A stretch of DNA of 43,016 bases, taken from positions 1 through 43,016 of the forward strand of contig JAUCBJ010000957.1 in assembly GCA_032718475.1 (NCBI GenBank). The letters are read 5' to 3'. The notes beneath the pieces are model-generated. The model saw only the letters and a program-made list of their open reading frames with translations, ran no database searches and was not told where the DNA came from. Source of the DNA: Nemertoderma westbladi (taxonomy: Eukaryota > Animalia > Xenacoelomorpha). The translations under genes were made by a program, and so were the position numbers. This document shows positions 1,141 to 30,366 of this stretch, one piece after another; position 1 is the stretch's first letter; each line of letters begins with the position of its first letter.

Positions 1141-2446
1141 CACTTAACTGCAGATAGAGGGGGGTGGGGGGGGGGGGGGGGACTTTCGACGCAATCAAAA
1201 TTCTTCCCTCTCCAGGTGAAAATCAACGCAAATAACAGCTGTTTACTCCTAAAAATAAAACTGCAACCTGTTCTATTGAGTTTTATTTATTCCTTTTGGT
1301 TAGAATAACGTGCCACCGTAACTAAACACTAAACCCAGATCGCATCGCATTCCTCGTCGACGTAAGTCTGACTCTTCCCGTCGCACTCCGTGACCGGAGT
1401 AAGAAACTACGCAAAATACTGCAATCTATAAACCCAGTATACGTGCTACCGGTACGCCTACTGGTTAAAAGTAATCTTATTTAGCGACATTTTATACGCA
1501 ACTAAATTTATAATGTATGAAAAGACCAAATGAAATTTAATATTAATTTTCGCCTGTCTGCATGGATGTTTATTTTTAGATTATCTTTCATTTGGCGGTC
1601 CAGTTCGCCACTCTTTCGATCCAGTTCGGTTCAGTTCGGTCCAGATTCGAGTACAGTACTATCCATGCTTTTTTGGTTTGTTGAATTCATTATTACATTA
1701 GTAATCGAAAGCAAGATTAGAAGGAAAATTTTCATTTTTTTATCAATAGAAAGTAAAAGAGCACCAAAAGTGCAAGTGGTACTCAAAATTGGTAAATTGG
1801 CCATACAGTTTGGCTACTGAGATTGTAGAATGTGCTGATTTCATTGGGAAGGTTTATTCCTCTACATCAAACATATCGAAGAGTTGTGTAAATATACTGT
1901 AACAACATACAGTAGGCATGTTGTTATATTAGTTATTCCCTAGTCAGTTATTTGTGCCCCTGGAGCGCGAAAAAAACAAGTTAGTGGAAATATGATAATG
2001 AAAAATCACCACAAATTGATTTTATAACCATATGGGTTTTTTGGGATGCTATGATCACGAATATGACATTAAAAAATATCGTACCTTGTTGATTACGGCT
2101 TTTTTGGATACGTGTCAATGTGCGGCACGAAAAATACAAGTAGCACAAATTTCATAATGAATAATCATTACCAAATCAAATTTTATAACATTTGGGGTTT
2201 TTTGGAATGCTGATCACGAATATGACACTGAAAAATATACCAGAATAGTTTCAGAATTACCAAACCAAAGGCAAAATTTGCACATACCAGAAATATTTAT
2301 AATATAACTACTTTCATCGTGATCAGCGACTTCGAAAACTCGAAATTTCTAAAATAACCACCCTCATCCCCTGCACCCACCCCCCCCCCCCCCCCCCCGG
2401 GCCAATTAAGTACTGTAATATAGCCCGGGCCAGATAGCAGATAGGG
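1141..2446. mobile_element. Putative piggyBac-type non-autonomous element
   Basis: TTAA at 1137-1140 and 2447-2450. Imperfect TIR cacttaactgc / gcagataggg. Subterminal poly-G (1158-1181) mirrors poly-C (~2377-2398). Internal tgatcacgaatatgac repeats. Confidence 0.5.
1660..1858 (-). repeat. Dispersed repeat fragment, same family as the 3383-3698 and 5269-5615 copies
   Basis: Reverse complement aligns to ccaatgaaatcagcacattcta...ggtgctcttt...ttcgattactaat...ccaaaaaagcat in the 5410-5615 region. Confidence 0.75.
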
Positions 2447-3382
2447 TTAAACGTACCGGTAACTCGGGATTAACTGAATATGAATCTCTTAATTCCGCAT
2501 CAAACACATACTGTAGTAGAGTAGAGTAAAATAAAGTTCCTCAAATCATGAAACGACACTATATTCCAGGATAGTTAATAATAAATCCCCTAAATAATAT
2601 CAGTTCCTCATTATATTGAAGTCGTAATATTAATAATTTATCTCAGCATATCTATTATGTATCAATTACCTTTGTATATTAAATCCAACTCAGTAAGAAG
2701 CGAACACTACTGTTAAGGTCCGAAAGGGCCGATTTCTTTGGGGGATTCAGATAGGAGTCCTTCTGGTTTAGGCAAGAAGAATAAACCTAGCATGATGATT
2801 CTTAAAGAATAACCGGCCCCACCAACAACCCCAAGTCCAGCAGTAGCTTCATCTCTAGATCAGATAAAGAACTAATTTTACTCTCCTTCATGAATTTCGA
2901 TGGACGATGGACGGTATATTATTTTTACTGGCGGTCTCCGAGGAATTTGAGGTATTTATATTTATGTGACAATGAAGTCGGAACAGAATCCGGGTTTACT
3001 GAATATATCGCCCGTCGAAATGTACAAATGTTAGTGGAAGGCCCTGGCACCTGGTGTCATCTGATCTGTAAAAAATCCCTGACTAGTCGAACTAAGTGCC
3101 ACTGTAGACCGAGCGCGCAAACGGAATCTATACACTACACACAGCACAGCACATTCCAACTTTCCCGTTAACTGCTACGGCCTCCATACAGATTCAGATA
3201 CTATGTCCCGACTAGATTAGGCCCCCGTGGCTGCCAGCCCGTGTAGAAGTGATAATAACTAGTCAAATAAACACAGGTATTCAGGTAATGTAATAATGAT
3301 AAGGCATTGATGCCTAACACAGTACAGCATAATGCACTCAGCAGTAATGTAATGCCTAACGCAGTAGTACAGTATAATGCAC

Positions 3383-3698
3383 TGCACATACCACATACAG
3401 AATAATACACTACATTACCGGACCAGTACCGACCAGAGTACTGAAAAAGAAGTACAATTTTAGCGCTTAAAGGACTTAAAATTTTCGACTGACACATTGG
3501 CCATTTTTGAAAATACCAAAAATTTTATAAATATTGCCAATGAAATCAGCACATTCTAAAACCTCAGTAGCCAAACTATACGGCTAAATTACCACTTTTG
3601 GCTATTTGAAAATTTCGAGCTACTTGTAATTTTGGTGCTCTTTCAGTGTCTATTATAAAATAAACAATGAAGATTTTATTCTAATTCGATTACTAATA
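3383..3698 (+). repeat. Left copy of ~315-bp direct repeat flanking a LINE fragment
   Basis: Colinear and highly similar to 5269-5581 (tgcacata...ttcgattactaata). Confidence 0.9.
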
Positions 3699-5268
3699 TT
3701 TCCTTTCATTTCTTTTAATCAAATAAAATTGATATAACACAGATTATTGGGTCATAAAATATATACAGTACAGTAATTACACAAAAGCAACAATAAAATA
3801 CGTAGCCCAACATAGATAAAATCAATGTTAACTTTACAAACTTTAAATAAAACAGTGTTCAGTTTGAAATAAAGGCTGTACAAGATTCATAAAAATCATA
3901 TGATGTTATAAATTCATAGGTGTAGTCGTTCGTGATAATTGTACAACGAATTAATATTCCGAAAGAAGTGTTCTAAGTGGTAAATCACAAAGTAGTACAG
4001 CAGGTCCAAGGTCAATCACCCCAGCTCCAGCAACAGTCAGTTTAGAGGTCTCCATGGTCTAAGTGCAAGTACGCGAGCGAAACGTAGAAAAGGTCAGCGT
4101 ATGGTGCAAGCTACGTGCTTCCAACCTTTCCCTTGGATGTAATTAAGGTTACAGCCTGTAGGAGCTCCGGTGGATCCCGGTGGAATGCTCAGCAATGCCG
4201 ATATGAAATCAGTGAAATGGTATTTAGATCCCGTGCTGTGATGGTAACTCAGACGATATTGAAGTATTGAGTAATCCTATTGTGTTTGTCTTTGAATGAT
4301 ATGTTCTTGAGATTGTAACATTCCTCGATGTACCTGGCATTAATGCATTCGATGGTCGTGAGGGTTCCCAATTTAATTCTCGCTTTCAGTTCTTTAACAC
4401 CGTAGCTGTGTTGTAGAAGGGAACTTATACTTGGCATTGCGAACTCTAGATTATTGCAGCGGTTGTACAAACTACCAATACCTACGTATCTCTTCATTGT
4501 GTCCATTGTGTTGATTTGCAGCATATTGCGAAGGTTGTACTGTAGATTTGGATTGGGACAGGATGTTAGTCGCCATAAAATTCCGATACAGGATGTAAAG
4601 GCATCGAAAGCAAGTGGTTGGCACCCCATTAAACAGTATATCACCTGATTCGAAGCGTATGTTCCAAGATGGAGTAGGCCCCTTAGTGTTTTCCGGTAAT
4701 AAATCTCAAGTTTTTCAATCTCGGTCTTTGTTAAGCGCCCTCTCAGGAATTTTGCGTTGTATAGTATCATAGGGAGTGCAACAGACCTCCACAGGTGAGC
4801 GAGAGTAGTGGTATTGAGCCACCTGAGAGTCCATGCGTTCCGGTGAAAAGATTCAGAGGCCATGGCGATTAGACGGATACACTCAGCGAGAGGATTGGGT
4901 CGCCAGAATTCTAGCTTGTATCCAAGGAATAGCAGCATAGATTGCCCTGGTATGAGTGTGTTCTTAATAGTGATGAAGGTAGGGATGCTGACGTTACTAA
5001 CGTTGGTTTTACTGGGGACACAGTAAGTCCATTTAGTCTTACTACTCTCAATATCCAGATGTACAGTATATTCCGCAGATTGTCGATGATGATGGATAGG
5101 ATTCTTTCGAGGTCCTCTGGATTTCTTGCCAGCACTAATATGTCGTCGGCGTACGCAATAATGTCCATCCAATTGCTCCCAGCTGTATGTTTATACCCAG
5201 CAGAGTCCAGTGCGTGAAAGACGTCACTCAGATAAAAGTTGGATAAGACTGACGAGATGTTGGATCCT
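3699..5268 (-). mobile_element. 5'-truncated, frameshifted non-LTR retrotransposon (reverse transcriptase pseudogene)
   Basis: ORF 4911-5285 has QGSNISSVLSN (RT motif 4) and IIAYADDILVL (motif 5). Overlapping ORF 4249-5172 has FLGY (motif 7) and thumb-like LPMILY...KLEIYYRKTLRGLL. Confidence 0.85.
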
Positions 5269-5581
5269 TGCACATACTGTACCACATACAGAATAATACA
5301 CTACATTACCGGAAGCAGTACCGACCAGAGTACTGAAATAGAAGTGCACTGCCTGGCACTTAAAATTTTCGACTGACACATTGGCCATTTTTGAAAATAC
5401 CACAATTTTATAAACTTTGCCAATGAAATCAGCACATTCTAAAACCTCAGAAGCCAAACTATACGGCTAAATTACCACTTTTGGCTATTTGAAAATTTCG
5501 AGCTACTTGTAATTTTGGTGCTCTTTTCGTGTCTATTATAAAATAAACAATGAAGATTTTATTCTAATTCGATTACTAATA
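5269..5581 (+). repeat. Right copy of ~315-bp direct repeat flanking the LINE fragment
   Basis: Matches 3383-3698. Continues into the host repeat sequence also seen inverted at 1660-1700. Confidence 0.9.
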
Positions 5582-6212
5582 ATTAATTCGACTATCCAAA
5601 AAAGCATAATATGGATTAATGGTTATACCAAAGCCTTGAAGGGTGATGCTTGTATTTTGAGTAATTTTATCAATTCCAAAAAGTGCTGATATGGTATGGG
5701 TGCCAGGAACTCCTCATATCTCGAAAACTACTGGAGCTATTAAATTTTTATTTGTCTCATCTGAAAGAGGACATAATTTTAGTTAGGGACAAGTACTTTC
5801 GACGCGCTAGACATATTGTTTCAGGGGTTCTATCTAAGAGAAATAACTGGCCCACTAAATTTAGGGGCTTTGCAGCAGCTTGGCGTGTCTACAGTAGGTC
5901 AGGGCCTGGCATTTCAGCGCTCCTGGGTGAGTGCGTCCGGGGGAACATTCCCCCCTCGCTACGCCTCTGGTAATAAGGCACTGCCCGTGACTGTGTATTA
6001 TTCATTGGCAATATTATGATAATCGATGCATGGTAGGCATAGCCGTTGTCTGATTGGTTAATATCACTTCAATTGCTTGCCAATCTGAATGAATTATCTG
6101 ATGGATTTAGTTCCAAACTCGAATGTTGACCAATAAGAAACGATGATGACAAATATTCCTGGAATTATTAATCTCCTTTTTGTTAGGCCTACAATTCTGC
6201 GCTCTTTTACCT

Positions 6213-6310
6213 CGGGTCAGCTTAGCCAAGTGGATACTTCCCTTGAAAATGGTTTCAAAATCAAACTGCACTTGATCATCACGGGTTCGAGTCCCGTTGT
6301 TTCCACTGGC
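6213..6310 (+). mobile_element. tRNA-like Pol III promoter head (SINE-like remnant)
   Basis: A-box-like tagccaagtgg (~6222) and B-box ggttcgagtccc (~6283). No full cloverleaf seen. Confidence 0.45.
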
Positions 6311-7069
6311 GCCTTCTGACCTTTTTGATCTTGTAATATTCCAAACATTAACATATCCTTTGTTTCAACTTCGTTCAAGTTGTGTAAAATTTTGTTATAA
6401 ACAATGTCCCACCCTATCCCGCACTCTCATAGCCCATTGCACCCTCCGATGCACACCAATACTTACAACAACCCTGCCCTACCCAAACTTAAAATTGATA
6501 GATATTTATAAAATTGATTGATAGCACTGATTGAATCATATTTGGGATTCAATTATGGTGAGATCCTGACCTACTAACTATATTAGGTCGTGGAGAGAGT
6601 TAATTTTATGGTCAGAAGTTAGTATTTATAATTTTAATTTCGATATAATTTCTTGTATTTCGGAAGTTTGAGTTTCATAACTAATGATCCAATGTCATAT
6701 GCATGAGTTCAACAACTAATTTGTGGTATAATTTTGATTGAATGCAATCTGACATTCCTTAAAAAATAATGTTAACAGTTAATAACAGTTTACACAAAGC
6801 TAAGGTTTCACATACATATAAACATTGTTAATTAATAAAATATCATATTGCTAATTGCACTTTTAAATTATGACAAAGTAGCAGCTGTACCACAGACACA
6901 AGTATAACAGCTGATAGTTATGTGCATTAATGCATGCATTTTGTAATGGATTGGTTCTACATCTACATTCAAATTGACTTATTGTGTTTGGTTATGTAAA
7001 TAATAATGTGTGTAAAATAATACGTTACGACCATTGTACGAGTCGTACCGATGACACCTTAGATGTTAA

Positions 7070-7876
7070 TTAAATTAATAGATTCGGTTCAGTTGCTTCT
7101 GTTTGGGAAGGGAACTCCTTAACAATATCTGAGTTGTTTATTAAACCCCGAACCAACGAGCGGTAGTTGCAACCGGAACTAAACAAGTGCTGCAACACAA
7201 TCGGGTTGGGGATCGGATAAGGTTTACTAGAGAACTCCCCGATAAAATCGGGATAACCGATCGTATTAGTAGACCTGTCGCCCCCATGACATGGTATTCT
7301 ATGGCAACCCGCGTCGTCTAGATTCACGGTCACAACACTTTTACTGCCGGGAGACAAGGATCCCGGTTTCGCGAATAGAATAGCGGAATCGTTGAGAAAT
7401 TCGTCGAATTCGAGACGCGATCGGAACGCGTTGAGGAACGGGATCCCCGGAACGGATGTAATCGGAACGCCCATATCCGAGACAACGCATTTCTCGATTA
7501 AACTACCCGGAACATCGTCGCATAAAAGTTGGCAAAGCGATAGTATCTCCGCGGCGGTGAAACAACTCTGGGATAAGAATACTTCCTTGTAACATCGATA
7601 TAAACATTTAATAAAACTCCTTCGATTCCAATGGGTTTTCTTAACGAAATCGAATTCGCGGAATAAAACATGCGTTCCTTCGGAGACGCTACGAAAATAA
7701 TCGGCTACAACTCTAGCCGTTGATGGCGGCTCTGGGTGTGGGAGGTCTCCCTTGGCCAAAGTATTCAAAGCTTGATTAACTAGTAACACCTCCGATATAC
7801 AATCCGATAGGTAAACTACCAGATCGTGTTTCTCTACGTATTCGGCGCAGGAATAACGGGATGGTTTGTTTGACAT
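7070..7876 (-). CDS. CSTPP1: Centriolar satellite-associated tubulin polyglutamylase complex regulator 1 (C11orf49 homolog), single-exon CDS
   Basis: 268-aa ATG-initiated ORF. Motifs EYVEKHDLVVYLSD, YFRSVSEGTHVLFREFDFV, NRRSFI and LCQLLCDDVP resemble vertebrate C11orf49 (YFNSVCQGTHILFREFSFV, LLQLLCPDFP) as I recall it. Confidence 0.85.
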   Translation of the reverse strand: MSNKPSRYSCAEYVEKHDLVVYLSDCISEVLLVNQALNTLAKGDLPHPEPPSTARVVADYFRSVSEGTHVLFREFDFVKKTHWNRRSFIKCLYRCYKEVFLSQSCFTAAEILSLCQLLCDDVPGSLIEKCVVSDMGVPITSVPGIPFLNAFRSRLEFDEFLNDSAILFAKPGSLSPGSKSVVTVNLDDAGCHRIPCHGGDRSTNTIGYPDFIGEFSSKPYPIPNPIVLQHLFSSGCNYRSLVRGLINNSDIVKEFPSQTEATEPNLLI

Positions 7877-8183
7877 AATTGTTTATCATTAGGGTCTATA
7901 TCAGTATATGCTATAGCATAGCAGGCTATAGCAGTAGATTCCTCTAAATGTTAGGATAATTTAAAATCTTAAAAATTGAATTTCAGAGATCTCTATAAAT
8001 AAATACCGCACCTTCAGTTCAGATCAGACCATTTTTCAGTTTTTATTGGTATTTCTGCAAAGTTATATTTTAAGGCCTACCAACGAATTATCCACAATTA
8101 ATTGCTGCAATCCAATGCCACTATGCCACTAATGCCAGGAAAAACAATATATTGAAAAAGAGTTAATAAATTCCAAATTCCGA

Positions 8184-8537
8184 TCACTCGATGGTCTCCT
8201 GTTTGTCCTTCACTGCAACCTTAAATCGTTCTTCCAGTAAAGAAATCTCTGATAATAAGTCAGTGAGAGCATTCTTAAAGGCTTCCTGAGGCGTAGACTC
8301 TGTGGTTGTTTGTACACGAAGAACGAACTTGTGCTCCAGTGGATGGGGTACCTTGTAACCAGCGAATATGACTCCGGGGTCTTTCAGCAGTTGACACGTG
8401 ATCATATTTCCCAGCGTGTGGTCCTCCTTCATCACAGAGAAGATTGCAGCGTTAGGAACTTTCGTATCTTTTTGTATCGTAACTTTCTTTTCTCCACCGA
8501 ACAATAGAAATGACTCAAAAGGGGGAGGTGCATTCAT
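8184..8537 (-). CDS. POLR2J: DNA-directed RNA polymerase II subunit RPB11, single-exon CDS, 117 aa
   Basis: [13 protein letters not shown]...KEDHTLGN...[13 protein letters not shown] is the RPB11 signature. The true ATG is at 8537; the ORF-track start at 8612 is non-ATG. Confidence 0.97.
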
Positions 8538-9385
8538 ATTTATAACATAGACGGCACTGCAGTACACAGTGCCGTACAGTACTGGCAATCTAGCCTCTGT
8601 AGGGTAGGCCAATAGGCCTATGCTATATCAGCACCGGTATGTCCCGATATCTGTATATCCCTGTATCCAGATACTGAGATATCATAAAAACCAATAACTG
8701 CAGAACTCTAGACTGCTGGACTGTCAGACTGTAGTACTGCAGTACTGTAGACTGGTAGAGCGGTATAACAACTGTATATTAGAACACAGACACATAAGCA
8801 GCAAACCCTCGCATGCATCATCAACCAACAGAGCAATCAAAACGCAATAATTTTTATTGTCCGTTTAAATCCTTTTTTGTCCTTTTTTTTTTATTTTTTA
8901 TGTCCTCCAAAAGTCTAATGTTAGGTTCCATGCTACCGGTTTCTCTACTGCTGTTCTCTCAGGCTATCAGTACCGGTATTAGTATATATAGCACTATTTT
9001 GCTGTATTGTATGTACAGATGTAGGTATAAAGCAGGTATTTCTGTATTTTAGTACCGGTACAGGCACCGGTACTGCTATAGGCCTACTATGTAGCCTACC
9101 TTTTAAATACGGTAATGGTAGGCCAACCGGTTGTGCTAATAAATTTTAAATAATTGCAGGCCAAACTGGATTGCAGGATTGTGGAAAATGTGGATATACC
9201 TTTCACATAATTTAGGCCTATTACTGTATTAGTTTTATAATCAATAATGGATCATGACTACTGTCTGAGTAGTGTTACGGATAGTGGCACCACTACTTCC
9301 AACAGTACAGATCAGTTCATAAACTCATCCGTACTCGAAAAAACTGAAAACTAATTTGACAGGTGGAGTTTGGTTTGTTGACAGT

Positions 9386-10340
9386 TTGGTTAGAAAATCC
9401 CGCCTCTGTAACCTGCTCCTTTCCCCGAATTGGTAAAGTGACCGTTTATTGTTTTGGTTAGAAAGGCCCGCCTCTGTAACCTGCCCCTTTCCCTCAATTA
9501 TTTAAATGATCGTTTATTGTTTTGGTTAGATAATCCCGCCTCTGTAACCTGCTCCTTTCCCTCCAATTGGTAATGTTATCGTTTATTGTTTTGGTTAGAA
9601 AATCCCGCCTCTGTAACCTGCTCCTTTCTCTCAATTGGTAATGTTATCGTTTATTGTTTTGGTTAGAAAATCCCGTCTCTGTAACCTGCTCCTTTCTCTC
9701 AATTAGTTAAATGATCGTTTATTGTTTTGGTTAGAAAATCCCGCCTCTGTAACCTGCCCCTTTCCCTCAATTAGTTAAATGATCGTTTATTGTTTTGGTT
9801 ATAAAATCCCGCCTCTGTAACCTGCTCCTTTCCCTGATTTGGTAAAGTGACTGTTTATTGTTTTAGTTAGAAAATCCGGCCTTAACCTGCTTCTTTCCCT
9901 CAATTAGTTAAGTGATCGTTTATTGTTTTGGTTAGAAAATCCCGCCTCTGTAACCTGCTCCTTTCCCTCAATTGGTAATGTTATCGTTTATTGTTTTGGT
10001 TAGAAAATCCCGCCTCTGTAACCTGCTCCTCTCTCTCAATTGGTAATGTTATCGTTTATTGTTTTGGTTAGAAAATCCCGTCTCTGTAACCGGCTCCTTT
10101 CCCTCAATTAGTTAAATGATCGTTTATTGTTTTGGTTAGAAAATCCCGCATCTGTAACCTGCTCCTTTCCCTCAATAAGTTAAGTGATCGTTCATTGTTT
10201 TGGTTAGAAAATCCCGCCTCTGTAACCTGCTCCTTTCCCTCAATTAGTTAAGTGATCGTTTATTGTTTGGTTAGAAAATCCCGTCTCTGTAACCTGCTCC
10301 TTTCCCTGATTTGGTAAAGTGACTGTTTATTGTGACTGTT
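9386..10340 (+). repeat. 69-bp tandem satellite, about 14 copies
   Basis: Unit tttggttagaaaatcccgcctctgtaacctgctcctttccctcaatt(g/a)gt...tcgtttattgt with three recurring sub-variants. Confidence 0.95.
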
Positions 10341-11505
10341 TATGACTCCTTTCCATCAATTGGTAATTGTTTTTGGCTATAAAATGAGTGTTTTGCTACG
10401 TCATGTGGTAATCGATTATCGACAACAACCACAAACTATTAAATATAGAGTCTTTTTACCACCCACAGGCGCATATGGAAATCTATCTTATAGTCTACAA
10501 ATCATGGAATCATGGAATGTTTTGGCACAGGCATAGTGAAATCAACTGTCTGACAGTCCAGAAATCAGCAGTCTGACAGTTTGAAGAAATACATACATAA
10601 AAAGTCATTAAAAGGACAATAAAAGTCATTAAAAGGACAACAAAAGTCATTATGCATAATTCGTAAAAAAAAACGGACAAAAAAAGTCAAATAAAAGGAC
10701 ATAAAAAATCACTGCCCAATCAAAATAGCAAATTCAACCTCTTCAGCAAAGGATCCCTCTGGAGTCCTCCTATTGGCTTGTTTATTTCGTATTTAGTTAA
10801 TTAGAAGACCGTCAGGGCTTATTGCTGTCAAAAAAATGTCTTTGTGTTTGTCTGTATGTATGTTTGTGCACATTGATATTGGCTTGGAAGGGTAAGAAGT
10901 GCTCTACTTCATGGCCAACTATACAAAGAAATGTATCGATTACTTGGGTTCTTATTTCGCTTATTAATTATTTAAGCGGGTAAAATTAAGCTCTTGTTGT
11001 ATAAAAATAGCACAGGTCGAGTCGCCGTGTCCCATTCTCACAAAGTTTTTATTATATTCGAGTGTTTAATATAAAGATGTATGATTATTTATTGATTGAA
11101 AATAAAATAGTATATAAATATGTAATATTCCTACACGCAGCCTGAACTTTGCCTATGGTAGCGAATAGGGAAGGATTTTCTCTGTATCATAGCAACGTTG
11201 TATAATTATTTAACCCTGGCTAGCTGGGAAGACAGGTAGCAAGCTGGTTGGAGTGTTGAGTGTGTCTCAGTAAATCCAATGGTTGGGGTGGGTTGTCTAT
11301 TGAGAACTCCGAACTGGTCATGGCATTAATTCTGCTTTCTCCAAGGCTTGCATGGCTTTACATATTGATTGCGATTGATATTTGATTGGGGATAAGATTA
11401 TCATTTAGTTTTTCGGTTTCAAGTTGTCTTATAGACGGTCTTCATATAGCCAGCTTGCTGGCTTTCTAGTTTTTTAAAAGAACCTTTGTGAATATTACTG
11501 TATAC

Positions 11506-11871
11506 TACTACTACTACTACTAAGATCGACATGCTGCATTGCAGTTGTATTTTTAAGAATGCTATGCCGCCTTATCGACAAAATTGCGTCGCCACAACTC
11601 CATGACACCCATGACATTTGCTACTGTAGATCATCCGCATCTTCAAGGCCAGTGTCCTTTAAGATGCGTCTCAAGAAAGTCATGGGATGTCCACCATGCT
11701 TATTCACTCCATGAGGCTGTCAAAGCACAAATTATGCACTGGCTGGTCCTCTCGGCGAAAGTACTGTCCTGCAAAGCGGAGGTGGCTTTGTTCTAGTGTC
11801 AAGCTAGGGGAAGCCAATGCAACACTTCCAATGCTATATAGTGTCTGATTGGAGATGTGTTCATTATACTT
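11506..11871 (-). mobile_element. RTE-like LINE 3' end with (TAG)n tail; left part of the copy interrupted by the 800-bp array
   Basis: Reverse complement of the 16690-17036 and 18125-18470 sequence. (cta)n tail at ~11506-11522. Continues at 16363. Confidence 0.85.
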
Positions 11872-11974
11872 AATTGAATGTATTAATTGAATGTACCGAC
11901 ATACTGACTAACAGGGGGTTGTGATGTATATATTATCTTTAAGGTAAACACTAGAGACTTACACCCTTTAACTA

Positions 11975-12012
<38 letters not shown>

Positions 12013-12348
12013 GAATCAGGACATTAAGCCCAAAATACCTTCCAGCCCCTAAGGCCATCAAGGAACACAAAACAAAACAAACAAAAAACACAAACAAAAG
12101 TATAGATTCAGGACATTAAGCCCAAAATACCTTCCAGACCCTAAGGCCATCAAGGAACACAAAACAAAACAAACAAAAAAACACAAACAAAATATATTAT
12201 ACCATGCTCCACATACAAGTATGTATCGCAACCCTAACCCTAAACCTAACCGCCATACACTAAATGATACCGGTATTAAACTGCACAAAAGCTAAGCCTA
12301 TATTATATAAGAAAATATATGACATTTTTGTCGCCGTGAAAGAGGTAG

Positions 12349-12443
12349 GACTAAAACAAAAATAATTAATTTGTTAAAAATATGGTTGCGTTTCGGCGTC
12401 TAGGACCAGTACGCGCTAATCCTCGACACCTCATCAGCTGGAC
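12349..12443 (-). ncRNA. Hammerhead ribozyme-like motif, copy 1
   Basis: Minus strand reads guccag CUGAUGA ggugucgaggauuag-cgcgua-cugguccuagacgcc GAAAC. The catalytic boxes flank a long stem II (gguguc/gacgcc, agga/uccu, uuag/cugg). Candidate GUC at 12351-12349. Stems I and III are weak. Confidence 0.55.
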
Positions 12444-12778
12444 AGGGAATTAGCCAAGCCTAACTATATTGCACCATTGACCTAAATTAATCGCACCATC
12501 AACTCAGTTACCACTCAGCCCAAACAGACTTCAGACCTCAGAACATTGGAACCCTATAGGCCTACGGTAAGTAAACATGTTACCAATGGAAAACTGGTAG
12601 TTTGCTAGAGCAAACACACAGCACAAAAATTATATAAGATTTAACAACATGCAGTGATGCCGGAGTTCTGCTCTATTCATATGTGATAATTGAATGTACC
12701 GACATACTGACTAACAGGGGGTTGTGATGTATATATTATCTTTAAGGTAAACACTAGAGACTTACACCCTTTAACTAC

Positions 12779-12809
<31 letters not shown>

Positions 12810-13145
12810 GAATCAGGACATTAAGCCCAAAATACCTTCCAGCCCCTAAGGCCATCAAGGAACACAAAACAAAACAAACAAAAAACACAAACAAAAGTAT
12901 AGATTCAGGACATTAAGCCCAAAATACCTTCCAGACCCTAAGGCCATCAAGGAACACAAAACAAAACAAACAAAAAAACACAAACAAAATATATTATACC
13001 ATGCTCCACATACAAGTATGTATCGCAACCCTAACCCTAAACCTAACCGCCATACACTAAATGATACCGGTATTAAACTGCACAAAAGCTAAGCCTATAT
13101 TATATAAGAAAATATATGACATTTTTGTCGCCGTGAAAGAGGTAG

Positions 13146-13240
13146 GACTAAAACAAAAATAATTAATTTGTTAAAAATATGGTTGCGTTTCGGCGTCTAG
13201 GACCAGTACGCGCTAATCCTCGACACCTCATCAGCTGGAC
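13146..13240 (-). ncRNA. Hammerhead ribozyme-like motif, copy 2
   Basis: Identical core gtttcggcgtc...gacacctcatcag at 13187-13234. Confidence 0.55.
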
Positions 13241-13574
13241 AGGGAATTAGCCAAGCCTAACTATATTGCACCATTGACCTAAATTAATCGCACCATCAAC
13301 TCAGTTACCACTCAGCCCAAACAGACTTCAGACCTCAGAACATTGGAACCCTATAGGCCTACGGTAAGTAAACATGTTACCAATGGAAAACTGGTAGTTT
13401 GCTAGAGCAAACATACAGCACAAAAATTATATAAGATTTAACAACATGCAGTGATGCCGGAGTTCTGCTCTATTCATATGTGATAATTGAATGTACCGAC
13501 ATACTGACTAACAGGGGGTTGTGATGTATATATTATCTTTAAGGTAAACACTAGAGACTTACACCCTTTAACTA

Positions 13575-13611
<37 letters not shown>

Positions 13612-13947
13612 GAATCAGGACATTAAGCCCAAAATACCTTCCAGCCCCTAAGGCCATCAAGGAACACAAAACAAAACAAACAAAAAACACAAACAAAAGT
13701 ATAGATTCAGGACATTAAGCCCAAAATACCTTCCAGACCCTAAGGCCATCAAGGAACACAAAACAAAACAAACAAAAAAACACAAACAAAATATATTATA
13801 CCATGCTCCACATACAAGTATGTATCGCAACCCTAACCCTAAACCTAACCGCCATACACTAAATGATACCGGTATTAAACTGCACAAAAGCTAAGCCTAT
13901 ATTATATAAGAAAATATATGACATTTTTGTCGCCGTGAAAGAGGTAG

Positions 13948-14042
13948 GACTAAAACAAAAATAATTAATTTGTTAAAAATATGGTTGCGTTTCGGCGTCT
14001 AGGACCAGTACGCGCTAATCCTCGACACCTCATCAGCTGGAC
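13948..14042 (-). ncRNA. Hammerhead ribozyme-like motif, copy 3
   Basis: Identical core at 13989-14036. Confidence 0.55.
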
Positions 14043-14747
14043 AGGGAATTAGCCAAGCCTAACTATATTGCACCATTGACCTAAATTAATCGCACCATCA
14101 ACTCAGTTACCACTCAGCCCAAACAGACTTCAGACCTCAGAACATTGGAACCCTATAGGCCTACGGTAAGTAAACATGTTACCAATGGAAAACTGGTAGT
14201 TTGCTAGAGCAAACACACAGCACAAAAATTATATAAGATTTAACAACATGCAGTGATGCCGGAGTTCTGCTCTATTCATATGTGATAATTGAATGTACCG
14301 ACATACTGACTAACAGGGGGTTGTGATGTATATATTATCTTTAAGGTAAACACTAGAGACTTACACCCTTTAACTACTGAACTACAAAAAAAAAAAAAAA
14401 AAAAAAATACAGAATCAGGACATTAAGCCCAAAATACCTTCCAGCCCCTAAGGCCATCAAGGAACACAAAACAAAACAAACAAAAAACACAAACAAAAGT
14501 ATAGATTCAGGACATTAAGCCCAAAATACCTTCCAGACCCTAAGGCCATCAAGGAACACAAAACAAAACAAACAAAAAAACACAAACAAAATATATTATA
14601 CCATGCTCCACATACAAGTATGTATCGCAACCCTAACCCTAAACCTAACCGCCATACACTAAATGATACCGGTATTAAACTGCACAAAAGCTAAGCCTAT
14701 ATTATATAAGAAAATATATGACATTTTTGTCGCCGTGAAAGAGGTAG

Positions 14748-14842
14748 GACTAAAACAAAAATAATTAATTTGTTAAAAATATGGTTGCGTTTCGGCGTCT
14801 AGGACCAGTACGCGCTAATCCTCGACACCTCATCAGCTGGAC
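14748..14842 (-). ncRNA. Hammerhead ribozyme-like motif, copy 4
   Basis: Identical core at 14789-14836. Confidence 0.55.
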
Positions 14843-15538
14843 AGGGAATTAGCCAAGCCTAACTATATTGCACCATTGACCTAAATTAATCGCACCATCA
14901 ACTCAGTTACCACTCAGCCCAAACAGACTTCAGACCTCAGAACATTGGAACCCTATAGGCCTACGGTAAGTAAACATGTTACCAATGGAAAACTGGTAGT
15001 TTGCTAGAGCAAACACACAGCACAAAAATTATATAAGATTTAACAACATGCAGTGATGCCGGAGTTCTGCTCTATTCATATGTGATAATTGAATGTACCG
15101 ACATACTGACTAACAGGGGGTTGTGATGTATATATTATCTTTAAGGTAAACACTAGAGACTTACACCCTTTAACTACAAAAAAAAAAAAAAAAAAAAATA
15201 CAGAATCAGGACATTAAGCCCAAAATACCTTCCAGCCCCTAAGGCCATCAAGGAACACAAAACAAAACAAACAAAAAACACAAACAAAAGTATAGATTCA
15301 GGACATTAAGCCCAAAATACCTTCCAGACCCTAAGGCCATCAAGGAACACAAAACAAAACAAACAAAAAAACACAAACAAAATATATTATACCATGCTCC
15401 ACATACAAGTATGTATCGCAACCCTAACCCTAAACCTAACCACCATACACTAAATGATACCGGTATTAAACTGCACAAAAGCTAAGCCTATATTATATAA
15501 GAAAATATATGACATTTTTGTCGCCGTGAAAGAGGTAG

Positions 15539-15633
15539 GACTAAAACAAAAATAATTAATTTGTTAAAAATATGGTTGCGTTTCGGCGTCTAGGACCAGT
15601 ACGCGCTAATCCTCGACACCTCATCAGCTGGAC
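15539..15633 (-). ncRNA. Hammerhead ribozyme-like motif, copy 5
   Basis: Identical core at 15580-15627. Confidence 0.55.
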
Positions 15634-15968
15634 AGGGAATTAGCCAAGCCTAACTATATTGCACCATTGACCTAAATTAATCGCACCATCAACTCAGTTA
15701 CCACTCAGCCCAAACAGACTTCAGACCTCAGAACATTGGAACCCTATAGGCCTACGGTAAGTAAACATGTTACCAATGGAAAACTGGTAGTTTGCTAGAG
15801 CAAACACACAGCACAAAAATTATATAAGATTTAACAACATGCAGTGATGCCGGAGTTCTGCTCTATTCATATGTGATAATTGAATGTACCGACATACTGA
15901 CTAACAGGGGGTTGTGATGTATATATTATCTTTAAGGTAAACACTAGAGACTTACACCCTTTAACTAC

Positions 15969-15999
<31 letters not shown>

Positions 16000-16362
16000 G
16001 AATCAGGACATTAAGCCCAAAATACCTTCCAGCCCCTAAGGCCATCAAGGAACACAAAACAAAACAAACAAAAAACACAAACAAAAGTATAGATTCAGGA
16101 CATTAAGCCCAAAATACCTTCCAGACCCTAAGGCCATCAAGGAACACAAAACAAAACAAACAAAAAAACACAAACAAAATATATTATACCATGCTCCACA
16201 TACAAGTATGTATCGCAACCCTAACCCTAAACCTAACCGCCATACACTAAATGATACCGGTATTAAACTGCACAAAAGCTAAGCCTATATTATATAAGAA
16301 AATATATGACATTTTTGTCGCCGTGAAAGAGCTAGTAAGTCTCTATAGTGTTTACCTTAAAG

Positions 16363-16544
16363 GTTCATTATACTTGACATAGTGAACCCGGCGTAGCATT
16401 CTTGTGAATGTGCCATCCAGAGATTTGGTGTCCTCGGTATTTAGAGCTCAGCATGCACTCCCATAGAGGAGTACTGACAAGTGCTGGCCTACTGCTGCTT
16501 TTAAGTTTCCGACGTATTCAATGTAATTTCCAGATCATTGACAG
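16363..16544 (-). mobile_element. Continuation of the minus-strand RTE-like LINE interrupted at 11871
   Basis: tacttgacatagtgaacccggcgtagcattcttgtgaatgtgccatccagagatttgg is the reverse complement of the adjacent RTE coding sequence (KSLDGTFTRMLRRVH). Confidence 0.85.
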
Positions 16545-17036
16545 ATCATAAGGTCCGATTATTTAGAGCAGCAGTAGTTCCAGTACTCCTCTACGGGAGT
16601 CCATGCTGGGCTCTAACTGCCGAGGACACCAAATCTCTGGATGGCACATTCACAAGAATGCTACGCCGGGTTCATTGTGTCAAGTACAATGCACACATCT
16701 CCAACCAGACACTATATAACATTGGAGGTGTCTCATTGGTTCCCCCAAGCTTGACACTAGAACAAAATCGCCTCCGTTTTGCAGGACATTGCTTTCGCCG
16801 TGAGGACCAGCCAGTGCATAATCTTGTACTTTGGCAGCCTCATGGAGTGAATAAGCATGGTGGACAGCCCATGACTTTCTTGAGACGCATCTTAAAGGAC
16901 ACTGGCCTTAAAGATGCGGATGATCTAGCAAATGTCATGGGTGATAGGTAGTTGTAGCGGTGCAATTTTGTTGACAAGCCGGCACAGCATTCTTAAAAAT
17001 GCAGCTGCAATGCAGCATGCCGATCCTAGTAGTAGT
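16545..17036 (+). mobile_element. 5'-truncated RTE-like LINE with (TAG)n tail, flanked by 130-bp direct repeats
   Basis: ORF KVRLFRAAVVPVLLYGSPCWALT...RLRFAGHCFRR (RTE thumb/C-terminus). Tail tagtagtagt. 16415-16544 is repeated at 17037-17166. Confidence 0.88.
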
Positions 17037-17459
17037 ATCCAGAGATTTGGTGTCCTCGGTATTTAGAGCTCAGCATCCACTCCCATAGAGGAGTACTGAC
17101 AAGTGCTAGCCTACTGCTGCTTTTAAGTTTCCGACGTATTCAATGTAATTTCCAGATCATTGACAGCCTCATATACAGTAGTTATATATGTTAGTTACAG
17201 TTATCATATGAAGTTGCATTTCTATTAGCAATGTCATTAAAAAAAAGACAAATTATTCTAAAATTAACTCATTACCAGTTTAGCGAAATTCACTAACTAC
17301 AGTATGCCTATGTACTGTACAGTATTCTGTCCGAGCGGTGGACTTTTTCACTTGTTGGTAAGTTGTAAGAGTTTCTAACATGTCAACGAGTGGAAAAAAT
17401 CAACACTCGAGTTCAGTAGGCCTATATCTGAATTTCATCGACAACATTTGTGTCTACAG

Positions 17460-18470
17460 TTGATCGTGACACAGAACCATTTGAAGTGTTATGGGGCGTC
17501 CTCCAGGCTAGGGAGACACACTTGCACCATTCTTGTTCATAATTGTGGTTGACTATGTTCTACGCATGTCATTAGATCATCATAATGATGATGGGGTGAT
17601 GATAACTCTACCTACTGGCTCCAGAAGTCGAGGAAATCCTGCCAAGTACCTAACTGATCTAGACTTTGCTGATGACTTAGGAGTACTCTCAGAATCACTA
17701 GAGGGAGCCCAACGGCTCCTCAGCTCATTAGAACATGCTGCTTCTAGTGTTGGTCTTTTTATTAACTCCAGAAAGACCAAAATGTTGGCAGTTAACTTTA
17801 AAGTCGTCAGCAAGTCTCTGATCGGATGAGCATAAGCTCAAAGGATGGTATGCTTGAGCATGTGGACAACTTCTGTTACCTTGGATCATGGATCCGGAAG
17901 TCAGGTGAGGACCTTCGAATACGCATGGGCAGCCTTGAATAGGCTTTCCAGGATTTGGAAGTCACCGATAATTAATCGGAAACTTAAGGTCCGATTATTT
18001 AGAGCAGCAGTAGTTCCAGTACTCCTCTATGGGAATCCATGCTGCGCTCTAACTGCTGAGGACACCAAATCTCTGGATGGCACATTCACAAGAATGCTAC
18101 GCCGGGTCCATTGTGCCAAGTAAAATGCACACATCTCCAACCAGACACTATATATCATTGGAGGTGTCTCATTGGTTCCCCCAAGCTTGACACTAGAACA
18201 AAATCGCCTCCGCTTTGCAGGACATTGCTTTCGCCGTGAGGACCAGGCAGTGCATAATCTTGTACTTTGGCAGCCTCATGGAGTGAATAAGCATGGTGGA
18301 CAGCCCATGACTTTCTTGAGACGCATCTTAAATGACACTGGCCTTGAAGATACGGATGATCTAGCAAATGTCATAGGTGATAGGGAGTTGTGGCGGTGCA
18401 ATTTTGTCGATAAGCCGGCACAGCACTCTTAAAAATGCAGCTACAATGCAGCATGCCGATCCTAGTAGTA
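17460..18470 (+). mobile_element. 5'-truncated, frameshifted RTE-like LINE (RT motifs 4-7 to 3' tail)
   Basis: GVLQ..GDTLAPFLFIIVVDYVLR, LTDLDFADDL and GLFINSRKTK, with the same C-terminus as the 16545 copy. Ends gatcctagtagtag. Confidence 0.9.
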
Positions 18471-20813: not shown

Positions 20814-22577
20814 TTAAGATTTATGAACAGAATTGATATGGGTGTTTAGGCAGTCTTGCCGACTGAATTCTTTATTACAATAACCGCATTTATGTTTGAT
20901 ATCTTTATGTATAGAATCGATATGTTTTTTTAGGTCGTCTTTGTAACTGAATTCTTTATTACAATAACCGCACTTATGTTTGATATCTTTATGTATAGAG
21001 TCGACATGTCGGTTTAGTGCGGCTTTTCTAGCAAATAATTTTCCACAATCGGAGCAGCTATACTTGATGATACCTTTGTGGGCAAAGTTAATGTGGGCGT
21101 TTAGACTACTTTGCCGGCTTAATTCTTTATTACAATAACCGCACTTAAGTTTGATATCTTTATGTATAGAGTCGACATGTCGGTTTAGTTCGGCCTTTGA
21201 AGCAAATGATTTTACACAATCGGAGCAGCTATACTTGATGATACCTTTGTGGGCAAAGTTAACGTGGGTATTTAGACTCCTTTTCTGGCTGAATTCTTTA
21301 TTACAATAATCGCACTTATGTTTGATATCTTTATGTACAGAGTCAACATGTGGTTTTATGTCGTGTTTGTGTTTGAATTCTTTATTACAATAACCGCATT
21401 TATGTTTTATATCTTTGTGAACGGATTCGACATGTTGTTTTAGTACGGCTTTAGAAGCAAATGATTTTCCACAATCAAAACAGTTGTACTTGATATCTTT
21501 ATGAAAGTAGTTGACATGGGTGGTTAGATTTCCTTGGTGGCTGAATTCTTTATTACAATAACCGCACTTATGTTTGATATCTTTATGTATAGAGTCGACA
21601 TGTCGGTTTAGTGCGGCTTTTCTAGCAAATGAGTTTCCACAATCGGAGCAGCTATACTTGATGATACCTTTGTGGGCAAAGTTAATGTGGGCGTTTAGAC
21701 TACTTTGCCGGCTTAATTCTTTATTACAATAACCGCACTTAAGTTTGATATCTTTATGTATAGAGTCGACATGTCGGTTTAGTTCGGCCTTTGAAGCAAA
21801 TGATTTTACACAATCGGAGCAGCTATACTTGATGATACCTTTGTGGACAAAGTTAACGTGGGTGTTTAGATTCCTTTGCTGACAGAATTCTCTATTACAA
21901 TAACCGCACTTATATTTAATATCTTTATGTATAGAGTCGACATGTCGTTTTATGTCGTGTATGTAACTGAATTCTTTATGACAGTAACCGCACTTATGTT
22001 TGATATCTTTATGGGTATCGTCAACATGCTTCTTTACATAATTTTTTATTTTAAACACTTTCTCACAATAATCGCATTTATACTTATTCTTGACGTCTTT
22101 ATGAACGGATTCTATATGTCTCTCTAAAATTCCTTTGTTATCAAATAATTCATTACAATGCAAACAGGAACTGGTGTCTGAAGAAGATACCAACTCCCCA
22201 ACAGTTTCATTAGAACTACCGGACTCTGTTGTTGCACAACTAATTGTTGGTTCTGTACCTTCAGTTCCAATGGGCCTATCATACGAACAGTCTGGACTAT
22301 TGTTTTCCCGTTTTTCAACAATAAAATAATCTCCAGATGGTTCATAAGAAATATCTTCGTCATCTAGTACAGGGACAACATTTACTCTACCGAACAAATT
22401 GTTGTGATCTTCGATGGGAGATGATCCGTAAACGCAGTTCTCTTGTTTAACATCACGAGAATAGGGGGTGGAGTCTGTTGGTTCTTTCTTTATAATTATA
22501 AAGTCTGTTGGTTCTTTCTTTATAACTATATCGGCGCCAGATGATTTCTCTTTCAATAAATTAGTATGTTGATCCAT
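20814..22577 (-). CDS. Tandem C2H2 zinc-finger protein (16 C-x2-C...H-x4-H fingers), single-exon CDS
   Basis: 589-codon open frame with first ATG at 22577 (MDQHTN). KDIK/KGIIK linkers. Acidic N-terminus with IKKEP twice and VKQE. Confidence 0.9.
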   Translation of the reverse strand: MDQHTNLLKEKSSGADIVIKKEPTDFIIIKKEPTDSTPYSRDVKQENCVYGSSPIEDHNNLFGRVNVVPVLDDEDISYEPSGDYFIVEKRENNSPDCSYDRPIGTEGTEPTISCATTESGSSNETVGELVSSSDTSSCLHCNELFDNKGILERHIESVHKDVKNKYKCDYCEKVFKIKNYVKKHVDDTHKDIKHKCGYCHKEFSYIHDIKRHVDSIHKDIKYKCGYCNREFCQQRNLNTHVNFVHKGIIKYSCSDCVKSFASKAELNRHVDSIHKDIKLKCGYCNKELSRQSSLNAHINFAHKGIIKYSCSDCGNSFARKAALNRHVDSIHKDIKHKCGYCNKEFSHQGNLTTHVNYFHKDIKYNCFDCGKSFASKAVLKQHVESVHKDIKHKCGYCNKEFKHKHDIKPHVDSVHKDIKHKCDYCNKEFSQKRSLNTHVNFAHKGIIKYSCSDCVKSFASKAELNRHVDSIHKDIKLKCGYCNKELSRQSSLNAHINFAHKGIIKYSCSDCGKLFARKAALNRHVDSIHKDIKHKCGYCNKEFSYKDDLKKHIDSIHKDIKHKCGYCNKEFSRQDCLNTHINSVHKS

Positions 22578-23499
22578 TATCAAATCTAATCTTCAATAAA
22601 TATTAATCAATAAATTAAATACAGGTGGCAGTAGTTCTAGGTAAGTCAAGCTCTTCACTAATATAAATTTCATGCGATGTAAATATAATAAATAGATTAT
22701 ATAAGGACGTTCAAAAGTTGCATGTCGCTGTAACGGAATGGGGCAGGTTATAGTGACAGTGACAAGCAAATGGAACCAAAAGAAACCTATCACTACTACA
22801 GTACCAGCAGTACTTACAGTACCAGTACGATTGGAGAGTAAAAAGGTTTAGGTGATTTATTAAATATGTTATTGGCGATTCATTTAAAGACACAGAGTGT
22901 GCTACGTACGATCGCGGTTGTATGGAACTACGACAGTTCCTATGTAGCAAACTTTGCCCGCGTTTGAACTTAAGTAATTAATTACCGGTACCTAATACTT
23001 AAACAAAACTCAAGTTCGTGTAGCTGATTATGAAACTGTAACCTGTAAAGCTAGTCGCTACAGACATTGTCAATAGGTTGCTATGGTATTTTCAAAAAAC
23101 TAAATATTTAACTTCATCATATCAAAAATAGTAATCTTCCATAAATTTTAACTAATCATATCTACAGATATACTATAAGAGCTGTTGCTTTGCTATGGCA
23201 GTTTCCTCCGTTGCATGTTTAAGAGTTTAAGACCCTCTAAAAAATCAGCTCAACCGTTTGGTGAAGTCTACCCAATTTGTTTATAATGTCCGATATCAGT
23301 ACTAAACATCTATATGGGGCTGGGGTAGCTCAGTCGTATAAAAACACTTTACGGGGTCATAGGCTGGAGCCTGTATTACATATAGAAACACCTAGATTTA
23401 TAAACATTGAGGCAGAAAACAACAGTTGGACATTTTTTTACCGACGAAAATACGAAATTAAACATCATGATTATTGAAATATTTCCGTTGCTATGTTAA

Positions 23500-28873: not shown

Positions 28874-30366
28874 GGATCCTTTTAATTTCACACATATCTA
28901 AAATGTTTAATTTCAGGACATTTAATGTTTAGACATGTTGGAGACTGATGAACTAACTAGATGGGTTTCTTAAAGTTTTTAAAAAATCTCACCTTTTGGT
29001 CCTGTAATAATGCCAACAAATTTTCAACACGACACAGCGTTAAATCCGACAAAGTTATTAGCATGTCAAATCGTAACGAAGACTACGTCGCGGCGTCAAC
29101 AACTATTTGCCATTATTGTCCCACCCCTAACATTGTCAGTTCACTAAGGCTCCGGCAACGTCGTGGCTCACCCCACAAAGCGCGAGCTGTGTAATCTTAG
29201 CACACAGTACAGCCGGCCGCTGTATTATTTACCTGTACTGTACGTACAGGTCTATAAACATGGATAAATAGGCCAGGTACAGTACCGTGCTATTTATCCA
29301 TAGTGCAGTAGTGCTGCGTTGCACTGACTAACTGCTTCCTGAATACGGGCAAAGGCAAATACGTCCCACATACGGTAGGCTACGGGAACTATTTCAAATA
29401 CGTACACATACAGACATACGGCAAAAAGACAAACCCCATTTTGGGGACGCTGTAAAAAAAAATTGGCGAGGGTTTTGGAACATTTGAAAACAGTTTTATG
29501 AAGCACAATATGTGTGCTACAGCAGTACAGACTCAAAACAAAATAAATGCATTTCTAAATACTTTCCTTTTTCTCCAAAAGGTTTACTTATCTGCTTATG
29601 CTGGGAATGGCTGCAATGTAATACTGTAATATATAATGCAGCTGCAATGCAGCATACCGATCCTAGCACCTAGCAGTCTGGTACAGTTAGACAGTACTGC
29701 AGTAGTACTGTCTGACTGTAGTAGTAGTATCACTTCGCTCTTCTCCGTTCCATTCTTCCTTCATCCTTGATGCTGTGATGTGCCTGCACGGCTACCGACC
29801 AGTGCGGGAATCTGTTGCCGACACGTCCCTCGTGTTGTCAAATGCTGACTCAGATCCCGGGCTCTGGGTGTAGACAGGTAGAGTAGAACTGTAAATAAGT
29901 AGGCCTAAACATTTATTGGTAAATTACTGAATTATGTTCTTGTCTTCAGTTGGTGGTGGATATTGCAGTATTGTTTTGTGCAAAGTTGTAGGCCTATAAG
30001 GTAATGTTTTTAGATTTGAAAATAGAGGAGACTTGAAAGTAAAAAAAAGTATCACTTCGTTCTGTTCTACTGTATATAATGTCTGAATGTATCTATGTAC
30101 TGTACTGTATGTACTGTAATAGGGGCCTACTTACAGACTTCAGTACTTTAATATATACAGAAATAAATAAATAAGCACAATTAGGATAGGCTACATAATT
30201 TAATTAATTCTATAATTGGATACCAAGATACAGAAAGACTAACACTGGCCAACGGATTCAATCTAACTGTCTAATACATAATACAGTAATCAGGTACGGG
30301 TAATACAGTAATTGGTAATACAGTAATAGGCCTCTACTGCAATTCCAACCGGTCCGGGGATTCACG

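Follow-up and report, generated by a model that had tools for sequence, protein, structure and literature searches.

How does a non-coding repeat come to lie in an animal genome as a ready-made tandem array, and does it carry a ribozyme that would explain its spread? This question is raised by the block at 11872-16362 of contig JAUCBJ010000957.1 from Nemertoderma westbladi, a 43,016-nt stretch that was analysed whole (the window, in whose positions all coordinates are given). Here, near-identical units of about 800 bp, each full one bearing a hammerhead-type motif, interrupt a long interspersed nuclear element (LINE), and an earlier description made without database searches (the sequence-only reading) had proposed a ribozyme-bearing retro-insertion of unusual size. 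At this locus we observe a target-site duplication (TSD), a tandem array, an empty-site paralog, a duplicated left terminus and a short inverted right arm. With little better than even confidence, we read the block as a single recent insertion: a non-coding 800-bp repeat of a multi-copy family, probably copied from a minus-sense RNA longer than the unit by target-primed reverse transcription, with both cut ends likely acting as primers, in the manner of Penelope-like elements (PLEs).

We first consider the target site, where the limits of the insertion can be read from a second copy of the same LINE. A paralog of the flank in turned orientation (16569-17037) aligns to 11512-11871 and then directly to 16363-16486, and contains the flanking 13-mer once. 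Because the two halves rejoin in this paralog around a single 13-mer, we take the 13-mer to be a true TSD and the insertion to span exactly 11872-16362. This bears out two claims of the sequence-only reading, namely that the block splits a LINE whose halves rejoin (the paralog is an uninterrupted copy) and that it is bounded by a 13-bp direct repeat (exact at 11859-11871 and 16363-16375, single in the paralog). The LINE itself is recognizable from a 148-aa frame across the paralog, whose homologs are proteins of 885-1049 aa that combine an APE endonuclease with a reverse transcriptase (RT) (best identity 47%), and from the downstream sister copy, which carries RVT_1 and DUF6451. In total, the window holds three copies of the LINE 3' open reading frame (ORF) region, at 11512-11871 plus 16363-16486 (minus strand), 16569-17037 (plus) and 17379-18432 (plus). 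The first and second copies are inverted relative to each other, head to head and about 100 bp apart; over 64 nt (16415-16478 vs. 17037-17100, in inverted orientation) their identity is 98%. In addition, a 68-bp tandem repeat of 4.9 copies (89% matches, 10000-10333) lies roughly at the estimated 3' end of the interrupted LINE.

To place the locus in the context of its family, we aligned to it Logan contigs from four DNA runs (X1-X4) of one organism, drawn from three studies; this alignment passed over the A-tract and 92-bp repeat part of the unit. LINE upstream sequence stands directly before 16366 in 40 contigs from X1, 20 from X3 and 4 from X4, and these contigs are empty sites in paralogs.

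Within these limits, the insertion consists of five full head-to-tail units followed by a sixth, partial unit that terminates at 16331-16335, with unit boundaries taken from a repeat search and a MAFFT alignment of the units (Table 1). From the structure of the ends, described below, we infer that the minus strand is the sense of the RNA template. The full units differ from one another at only two points (alignment columns 368 and 733), and the main length-variable part is an A-tract of 33, 27, 32, 22, 21 and 27 A in units 1 to 6. Unit 4 alone carries an 8-nt duplication at 14379-14386, TTAACTAC then TGAACTAC, directly before its A-tract; in form, this resembles the duplicated start with which the insertion opens on the left, and it is possibly a reverse-transcriptase slip. 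The sequence-only reading had counted five full units (803, 797, 802, 800 and 791 bp) and one partial unit, differing almost only in A-tract length and a few point changes, and had seen no credible ORF; the count and the lengths were reproduced, the 8-nt duplication joins the list of differences, and no frame in the block runs beyond 80 aa without a stop.

The unit has a GC content of 36.5%, and BLAST against the rest of the window returned low-complexity matches only, with no sequence shared with the LINE copies. ARAGORN found no tRNA-like or RNA polymerase III (Pol III) head; a short interspersed nuclear element dependent on the LINE was accordingly rejected on the lack of such a head, the internal position of the A-tract and the lack of 3' similarity to the window LINEs. 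Each unit also contains, in its most abundant module, one telomere-like AACCCTAACCCTAAACCTAACC, which corresponds to the TTAGGG-like G-strand when read on the strand of the hammerhead half; no other telomere-like doublet occurs in the window outside the units.

Table 1 Features of the insertion, of its target and of the remainder of the window (TRF, Tandem Repeats Finder)
Feature	Position	Strand	Description
Left TSD copy	11859..11871	.	13 bp, GTTCATTATACTT; exact match to 16363-16375
Right TSD copy	16363..16375	.	13 bp
Interrupted LINE copy, C-terminal ORF region	11512..11871 (left half), 16363-16486 (right half)	-	
Left terminal 13 nt	11872..11884	+	AATTGAATGTA + TT, repeating start of unit 1
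Unit 1	11885-12687	- (inferred RNA sense)	803 bp
Unit 2	12688-13484	- (inferred RNA sense)	797 bp
Unit 3	13485-14286	- (inferred RNA sense)	802 bp
Unit 4	14287-15086	- (inferred RNA sense)	800 bp
Unit 5	15087-15877	- (inferred RNA sense)	791 bp
Unit 6, truncated	15878..16334	-	about 454-458 nt; 5'-truncated end of long arm
Short inverted arm	16335..16362	+	28 nt; complement of unit positions 53-79 plus TA insertion; abuts right TSD
A-tract of unit 1	11976..12008	+	33 A (TRF)
Internal repeat	12009..12196	+	92 bp, A/C-rich, about 2.3-2.4 copies, in every unit (TRF period 92)
Telomere-like repeat	12230..12251	+	AACCCTAACCCTAAACCTAACC, once per unit
Hammerhead enzyme half, unit 1	12390..12437	-	CUGAUGA, helix II, GAAAC
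Hammerhead enzyme half, units 2-5	13187-13234, 13989-14036, 14789-14836, 15580-15627	-	
Rpb11-type RNA polymerase subunit	8184-8627	-	long uninterrupted frame (Pfam)
12-finger C2H2 zinc-finger protein	20814-22592	-	long uninterrupted frame (Pfam)
TM7S3/TM198 domain protein	30319-32085	+	long uninterrupted frame (Pfam)
Glutamine synthetase	37437-38696	-	long uninterrupted frame (Pfam)

Both ends of the insertion can be read base by base. At the left, the sequence-only reading had seen an 11-nt stutter, which is more exactly a perfect 13-nt tandem, TTAATTGAATGTA twice at 11870-11895 (TRF period 13, 2.0 copies, 100%), that takes in the last two target bases (TT). At the right, its short inverted copy of the unit resolves into the complement of positions 53-79, and the junction between this arm and the sixth unit is ambiguous over 3-4 nt (16332-16335). 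From either flank inward, plus-strand unit sequence runs away from the flank, with the inverted arm beginning 52 nt further into the unit than the direct arm (position 53 vs. position 1). Reading the sequence by hand, we found no template homology next to the start at either primer end, and neither insertion end carries poly(A), the A-tract being internal. A plus-sense polyadenylated RNA copied with template jumps was considered and rejected, as the end of the insertion does not coincide with the A-tract and no AAUAAA or AUUAAA was seen by eye in the 30 nt before it. What the locus does present is a partial tandem with 5' truncation next to an inverted, 5'-truncated copy, a feature of PLE insertions.

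Collectively, the TSD, the truncated unit, the inverted arm, the duplicated start and the lack of a terminal poly(A), of a tRNA-like head and of LINE similarity match descriptions of PLEs, and thereby point to target-primed reverse transcription from both ends. The template would be a minus-sense RNA longer than one unit, either a multimeric transcript or a circle. In such a process, the top-strand 3' end at 11871 would prime the long arm, yielding a cDNA of plus-strand sequence from unit position 1, while the bottom-strand 3' end at 16363 would prime a second, short cDNA of the same RNA from position 53, and the two cDNAs would be joined at 16332-16335. The 52-nt offset between the starts would equal the PLE "tail" that lies between two RT start sites, and the enzyme would be supplied in trans by an autonomous element, probably of Penelope type.

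The DNA contigs also indicate that the unit belongs to a multi-copy family in which head-to-tail and inverted junctions recur in independent DNA runs. For contigs with an exact match to the unit, word depth (a measure that is not a copy number) is 1,850-9,346, compared with 17-112 for long or flank-specific contigs, which indicates that the unit is multi-copy. Summed depth in X1 is about 57,000-71,000 at unit positions 1-50, 125,000-235,000 at about 340-450 and 4,000-15,000 at about 690-775, and this strong unevenness means that the unit is built of modules shared unequally with related repeats. At 15875, the depth rises abruptly by a factor of about six (about 11,000 before, about 71,000 after). 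Among the best-supported 24 of 838 and 18 of 220 contigs with loose ends, some start matching at 15871-15873 with mutually different upstream sequence (4 in X1, 2 in X3 and 3 in X4; agreement 0.54-0.67), a heterogeneity that independent left termini would give, as would other elements sharing a terminal module.

Further inverted joints between unit segments were found at 12328/12401 (X1 and X2) and 15744/16310 (X1 and X3), and one 280-nt contig from X4 bridges the junction between two units; no contig among those listed bridges a junction between flank and insert. In the junction region 15866-15873, other family copies diverge on both sides, contigs leaving the unit after 15866 (by an identical 13-letter sequence in both X1 and X3), and the roughly 10 nt between the exit and entry points may represent a joint formed when monomer ends were joined. 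Metagenome scans gave 0 matches to a family-invariant 22-mer and 0 matches to a degenerate pattern of the core, helix II and GAAAC.

The sequence-only reading is supported in part. The element is young, belongs to a multi-copy family, has no coding capacity and went in as a preformed tandem block with its own 13-bp TSD, and the ends do show the partial tandem and inverted arm that the reading had ascribed to PLEs, together with a terminal extension. As an interpretation, then, the tandem retro-insertion with PLE-like ends stands, while the ribozyme and the unusual size, both taken up below, are not supported.

Several observations weigh against the reading that we favour. Among the 14 window ORFs of at least 90 aa there is no Penelope-type RT or GIY-YIG domain, the only RT being that of the LINE, and twin priming by a LINE yields the same two-primer geometry. 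The 52-nt offset, available from one locus, exceeds the 30-40-bp tail of PLEs, and the inverted arm is only 28 nt long. Since the terminal 13-nt duplication includes two target bases, it could be the product of later replication slippage, and part of the copy number could come from unequal exchange after the insertion. The whole unit folds no better than its shuffles (z of +0.32 for the minus strand and -0.14 for the plus strand), so that a viroid-like structured RNA is not favoured. Finally, the structure of the insertion was read base by base at one locus only, and the support that contigs lend to the family is indirect, resting on word depths and on the best-supported subset of loose-end contigs.

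Of the competing explanations, the most serious is that an APE-type LINE, such as the RTE-like family of the window, retroposed RNA transcribed from an 800-bp satellite, with twin priming producing the inverted 5' piece and no PLE involved. In LINE twin priming, known from L1 5' inversions, two primers arising from staggered nicks leave the 5' segment inverted, the TSD measuring about 7-20 bp, and a 13-bp TSD together with 5' truncation and a short inversion is the classic outcome. The ends of the block fit this pattern, and a LINE with APE and RT is abundant, as seen in the three 3' ORF copies in the window and in very high contig depths. However, the unit and the window LINE copies share no sequence, and hence no common 3' tail, and the 3' end of the insertion lacks poly(A) or a microsatellite. 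Elements that depend on LINEs are, moreover, usually monomeric, whereas here the body is multi-unit and head-to-tail and inverted junctions recur across the family; the hammerhead-derived motif, in turn, suggests PLE ancestry. We therefore regard LINE twin priming as a serious rival that is nonetheless unlikely to account for the locus.

The next explanation turns on the motif itself. As the sequence-only reading had stated, CUGAUGA, a helix II stem and GAAAC lie on the minus strand of each full unit (5/5, one core per unit). Helix II is a flush 6-bp stem (GGUGUC/GACGCC) closed by G10.1-C11.1, and in folds it lengthens to about 14 bp, interrupted by a 1x1 internal loop. When the unit was shuffled 20,000 times with its dinucleotides preserved, the half-motif with a 6-bp stem arose on neither strand (0 of 20,000; 5 of 20,000 at a stem of at least 5 bp, 19 of 20,000 at 4 bp or more), so that the match is not due to chance. 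Across the DNA contigs, only two variants are common inside the motif, 12433 A>G, at N7, a free position of the core, and 12397 C>T, which converts a U.G pair of helix II to U-A. Both are compatible with a hammerhead; this lends the motif weak support, because variation is low across all of 12376-12620.

The remainder of a hammerhead is another matter. At E<=10, Rfam, whose hammerhead families are RF00163 and RF00008, returned no match in 11800-13500 (1.7 kb) or 12300-12540 (241 nt); on a 141-nt piece, it returned only Hammerhead_1 at 12.9 bits, against a gathering threshold of 34, with an alignment that covers helix I and the core without the GAAA. A relaxed descriptor (helix I of at least 3 bp, II of at least 3 and III of at least 2, loops to 90 nt, C3-G8 or U3-A8 cores) found no complete type I or type III motif on either strand, loop-less minimal motifs being outside its reach. 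The minimal form is absent too, given that CGCA follows the GAAA where a minimal motif needs CGUH. Scanning the circular unit, we found no U16.1/H17 cleavage strand, helix I or helix III in a workable position. The best candidate cleavage strand, GCGU-A/CUGG, pairs over 4+4 bp (the others over 3+3 bp), is of a quality expected by chance at a rough estimate of 0.2 sites per unit, and sits in the motif's own helix II loop, a place where it is topologically unusable in cis. As the motif lacks a cis cleavage strand, it is not predicted to cleave itself, and the "ribozyme-bearing" unit of the sequence-only reading is reduced to one with the enzyme half of a hammerhead.

Other routes to a complete ribozyme were tried and rejected. 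Cleavage in trans would have as its best site the same 4+4 bp inside the motif's own helix II loop, and the window holds no site of at least 9 bp. A three-way junction forms in free as in constrained folds; its closing stem is type III-like, but its junction strands measure 9 nt, compared with the hammerhead's one nucleotide. In the type III reading, AUGGUGC or GGUGCG pairs with CGC-A-ACC in these folds, leaving a junction without U16.1-H17 and helix I out of register. A dimeric helix III formed through the palindrome AAUUAAUU proved out of register when checked by hand. A text search of a collection of papers for the letters of the motif matched unrelated primers only. The motif is most likely inherited from a Penelope-type hammerhead, and self-cleavage is probably unnecessary for insertion.

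Against this background, a true retrozyme would be an element whose minus-strand RNA self-cleaves as a dimer, in trans or with the aid of a protein, ligates to an 800-nt circle and is copied repeatedly from that circle by a Penelope-type RT. The presence of core, 6-bp helix II with G10.1-C11.1 and GAAA beyond chance in every full unit, the hammerhead-compatible nature of both common variants and the near-identity of the units, which fits a single copied template, all speak for it. PLE hammerheads are also often minimal and nearly inactive alone, and in one case protein-assisted (PMC4209133, PMC11167929). Yet the cleavage strand is not where it is required, neither Rfam nor the relaxed descriptor (which passed no type I, minimal or type III motif) recovers a ribozyme, CGCA stands in place of CGUH, the majority variants fail to preserve the candidate positions of helix I and the unit shows no excess folding energy. 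We place this explanation just after LINE twin priming, and likewise consider it doubtful.

A third possibility locates the copy number at the DNA level, with one or two units inserted and then expanded by unequal crossing-over or slippage, or with an amplified extrachromosomal circular DNA integrated as such. Tandem arrays expand readily, the units are almost identical with A-tracts that vary like microsatellites, and the 13-nt terminal duplication spans the boundary of target and insert in a slippage-like manner. Nevertheless, one intact 13-bp TSD, which is not expected from integration of circular DNA, encloses the whole block, and the truncated unit and inverted arm form a structure made at the time of insertion; multi-unit arrays are, in addition, usual for such elements (no more than seven units in 75% of families in the retrozyme survey cited below). 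These points render DNA-level expansion improbable as the main source of the array. An assembly artefact, by which the locus would hold fewer units than were assembled, merits next to no credence, since near-identical 800-bp repeats are difficult to assemble but the units here vary in an orderly way in A-tract length, two private point changes and one private 8-nt duplication, and the head-to-tail junction is present in the independent run X4.

Elsewhere in the window, we identified a vault RNA gene at 6214-6326 (plus strand; Rfam RF00006, 62 bits against a gathering threshold of 34, full-length model match), which is the sole Rfam match at gathering in the whole window. The four long Pfam-matching frames listed in Table 1 could be genes with few introns, or else retrocopies, of an animal-like genome.

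We return to target-primed reverse transcription in the Penelope-like manner to consider what the locus would add. It offers a clean and very young tandem retro-insertion whose two ends are fully legible, and such loci are raw material on how Penelope-type RTs build tandem and inverted copies, a process demonstrated so far for a single lizard element, and only in vitro. Should the family be active in the absence of a self-cleaving ribozyme, its spread would not need cleavage, in agreement with ribozyme mutants studied in vitro (PMC11167929). A bolder version, which we consider unlikely, is that a retrozyme lineage keeps just the enzyme half of its hammerhead yet amplifies as ready-made arrays, with self-cleavage dispensable in vivo, or with the half-ribozyme cutting a separate RNA in trans or acting as a protein-assisted dimer. 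The half-hammerhead makes the locus a modest test case; in other respects the element is ordinary, with unit size and copy number inside published ranges.

How does the element compare with known systems? In the two sources that define them (PMC7229834; 10.64898/2026.07.22.740005), animal retrozymes of the non-long-terminal-repeat (non-LTR) type are recognized operationally as tandem repeats with complete type I hammerheads, either canonical or minimal. The preprint by Li, Clavereau & Pollet 2026 (10.64898/2026.07.22.740005) gives consensus lengths of 51-972 bp, with no more than seven units in 75% of families, a range that overturns the "larger than typical" of the sequence-only reading and takes in both our 800-bp unit and our six units. 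Like the elements described by Cervera & de la Pena 2020 (PMC7229834), ours comprises non-coding, low-GC (<45-50%) head-to-tail units in multiple copies, with a TSD of >4 bp and a hammerhead-type core on one strand. Unlike them, it has no complete type I hammerhead in any consecutive units, and for this reason we do not class it as a strict retrozyme. Retrozyme circles shown by experiment measure 170-400 nt, whereas our unit is larger.

The motif itself is close to the minimal hammerheads of PLE pseudo-LTRs, which, as described by Cervera & de la Pena 2014 (PMC4209133), share the CUGANGA core and GAAAC, a long, internally irregular helix II closed by G10.1-C11.1, and weak or absent helices I and III, such that the activity of a single motif is expected to be low or none. 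Those motifs nonetheless keep U16.1-H17 and a helix I of 2-5 bp after GAAA(C-G), in contrast to the CGCA without a helix I strand seen here.

For PLEs at large, Craig et al. 2021 (PMC8557442) give as hallmarks a partial tandem arrangement, a neighbouring copy that is inverted and 5'-truncated, and a tail of 30-40 bp confined to one end. In vitro, Frangieh et al. 2024 (PMC11167929) reported cleavage and extension of both DNA strands at AT-rich targets with ATT, two adjacent internal RT start sites that need no target homology, and insertion that does not require hammerhead cleavage, ribozyme mutants still inserting. Our element differs from PLEs in its start offset (52 nt vs. 30-40) and from the telomere-attaching Athena and Coprina elements in carrying its telomere-like repeat on the opposite strand. 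It resembles PLEs in its 5'-truncated partial tandem, in the inverted 5'-truncated copy at the 5' end, in a terminal extension at one end only, in RT starts without target homology and in an AT-rich target containing ATT, and resembles their non-autonomous forms in its multi-copy head-to-tail insertion; some PLE clades (Naiad) likewise lack canonical hammerheads. In its working, the element thus resembles both a retrozyme and a non-autonomous Penelope derivative.

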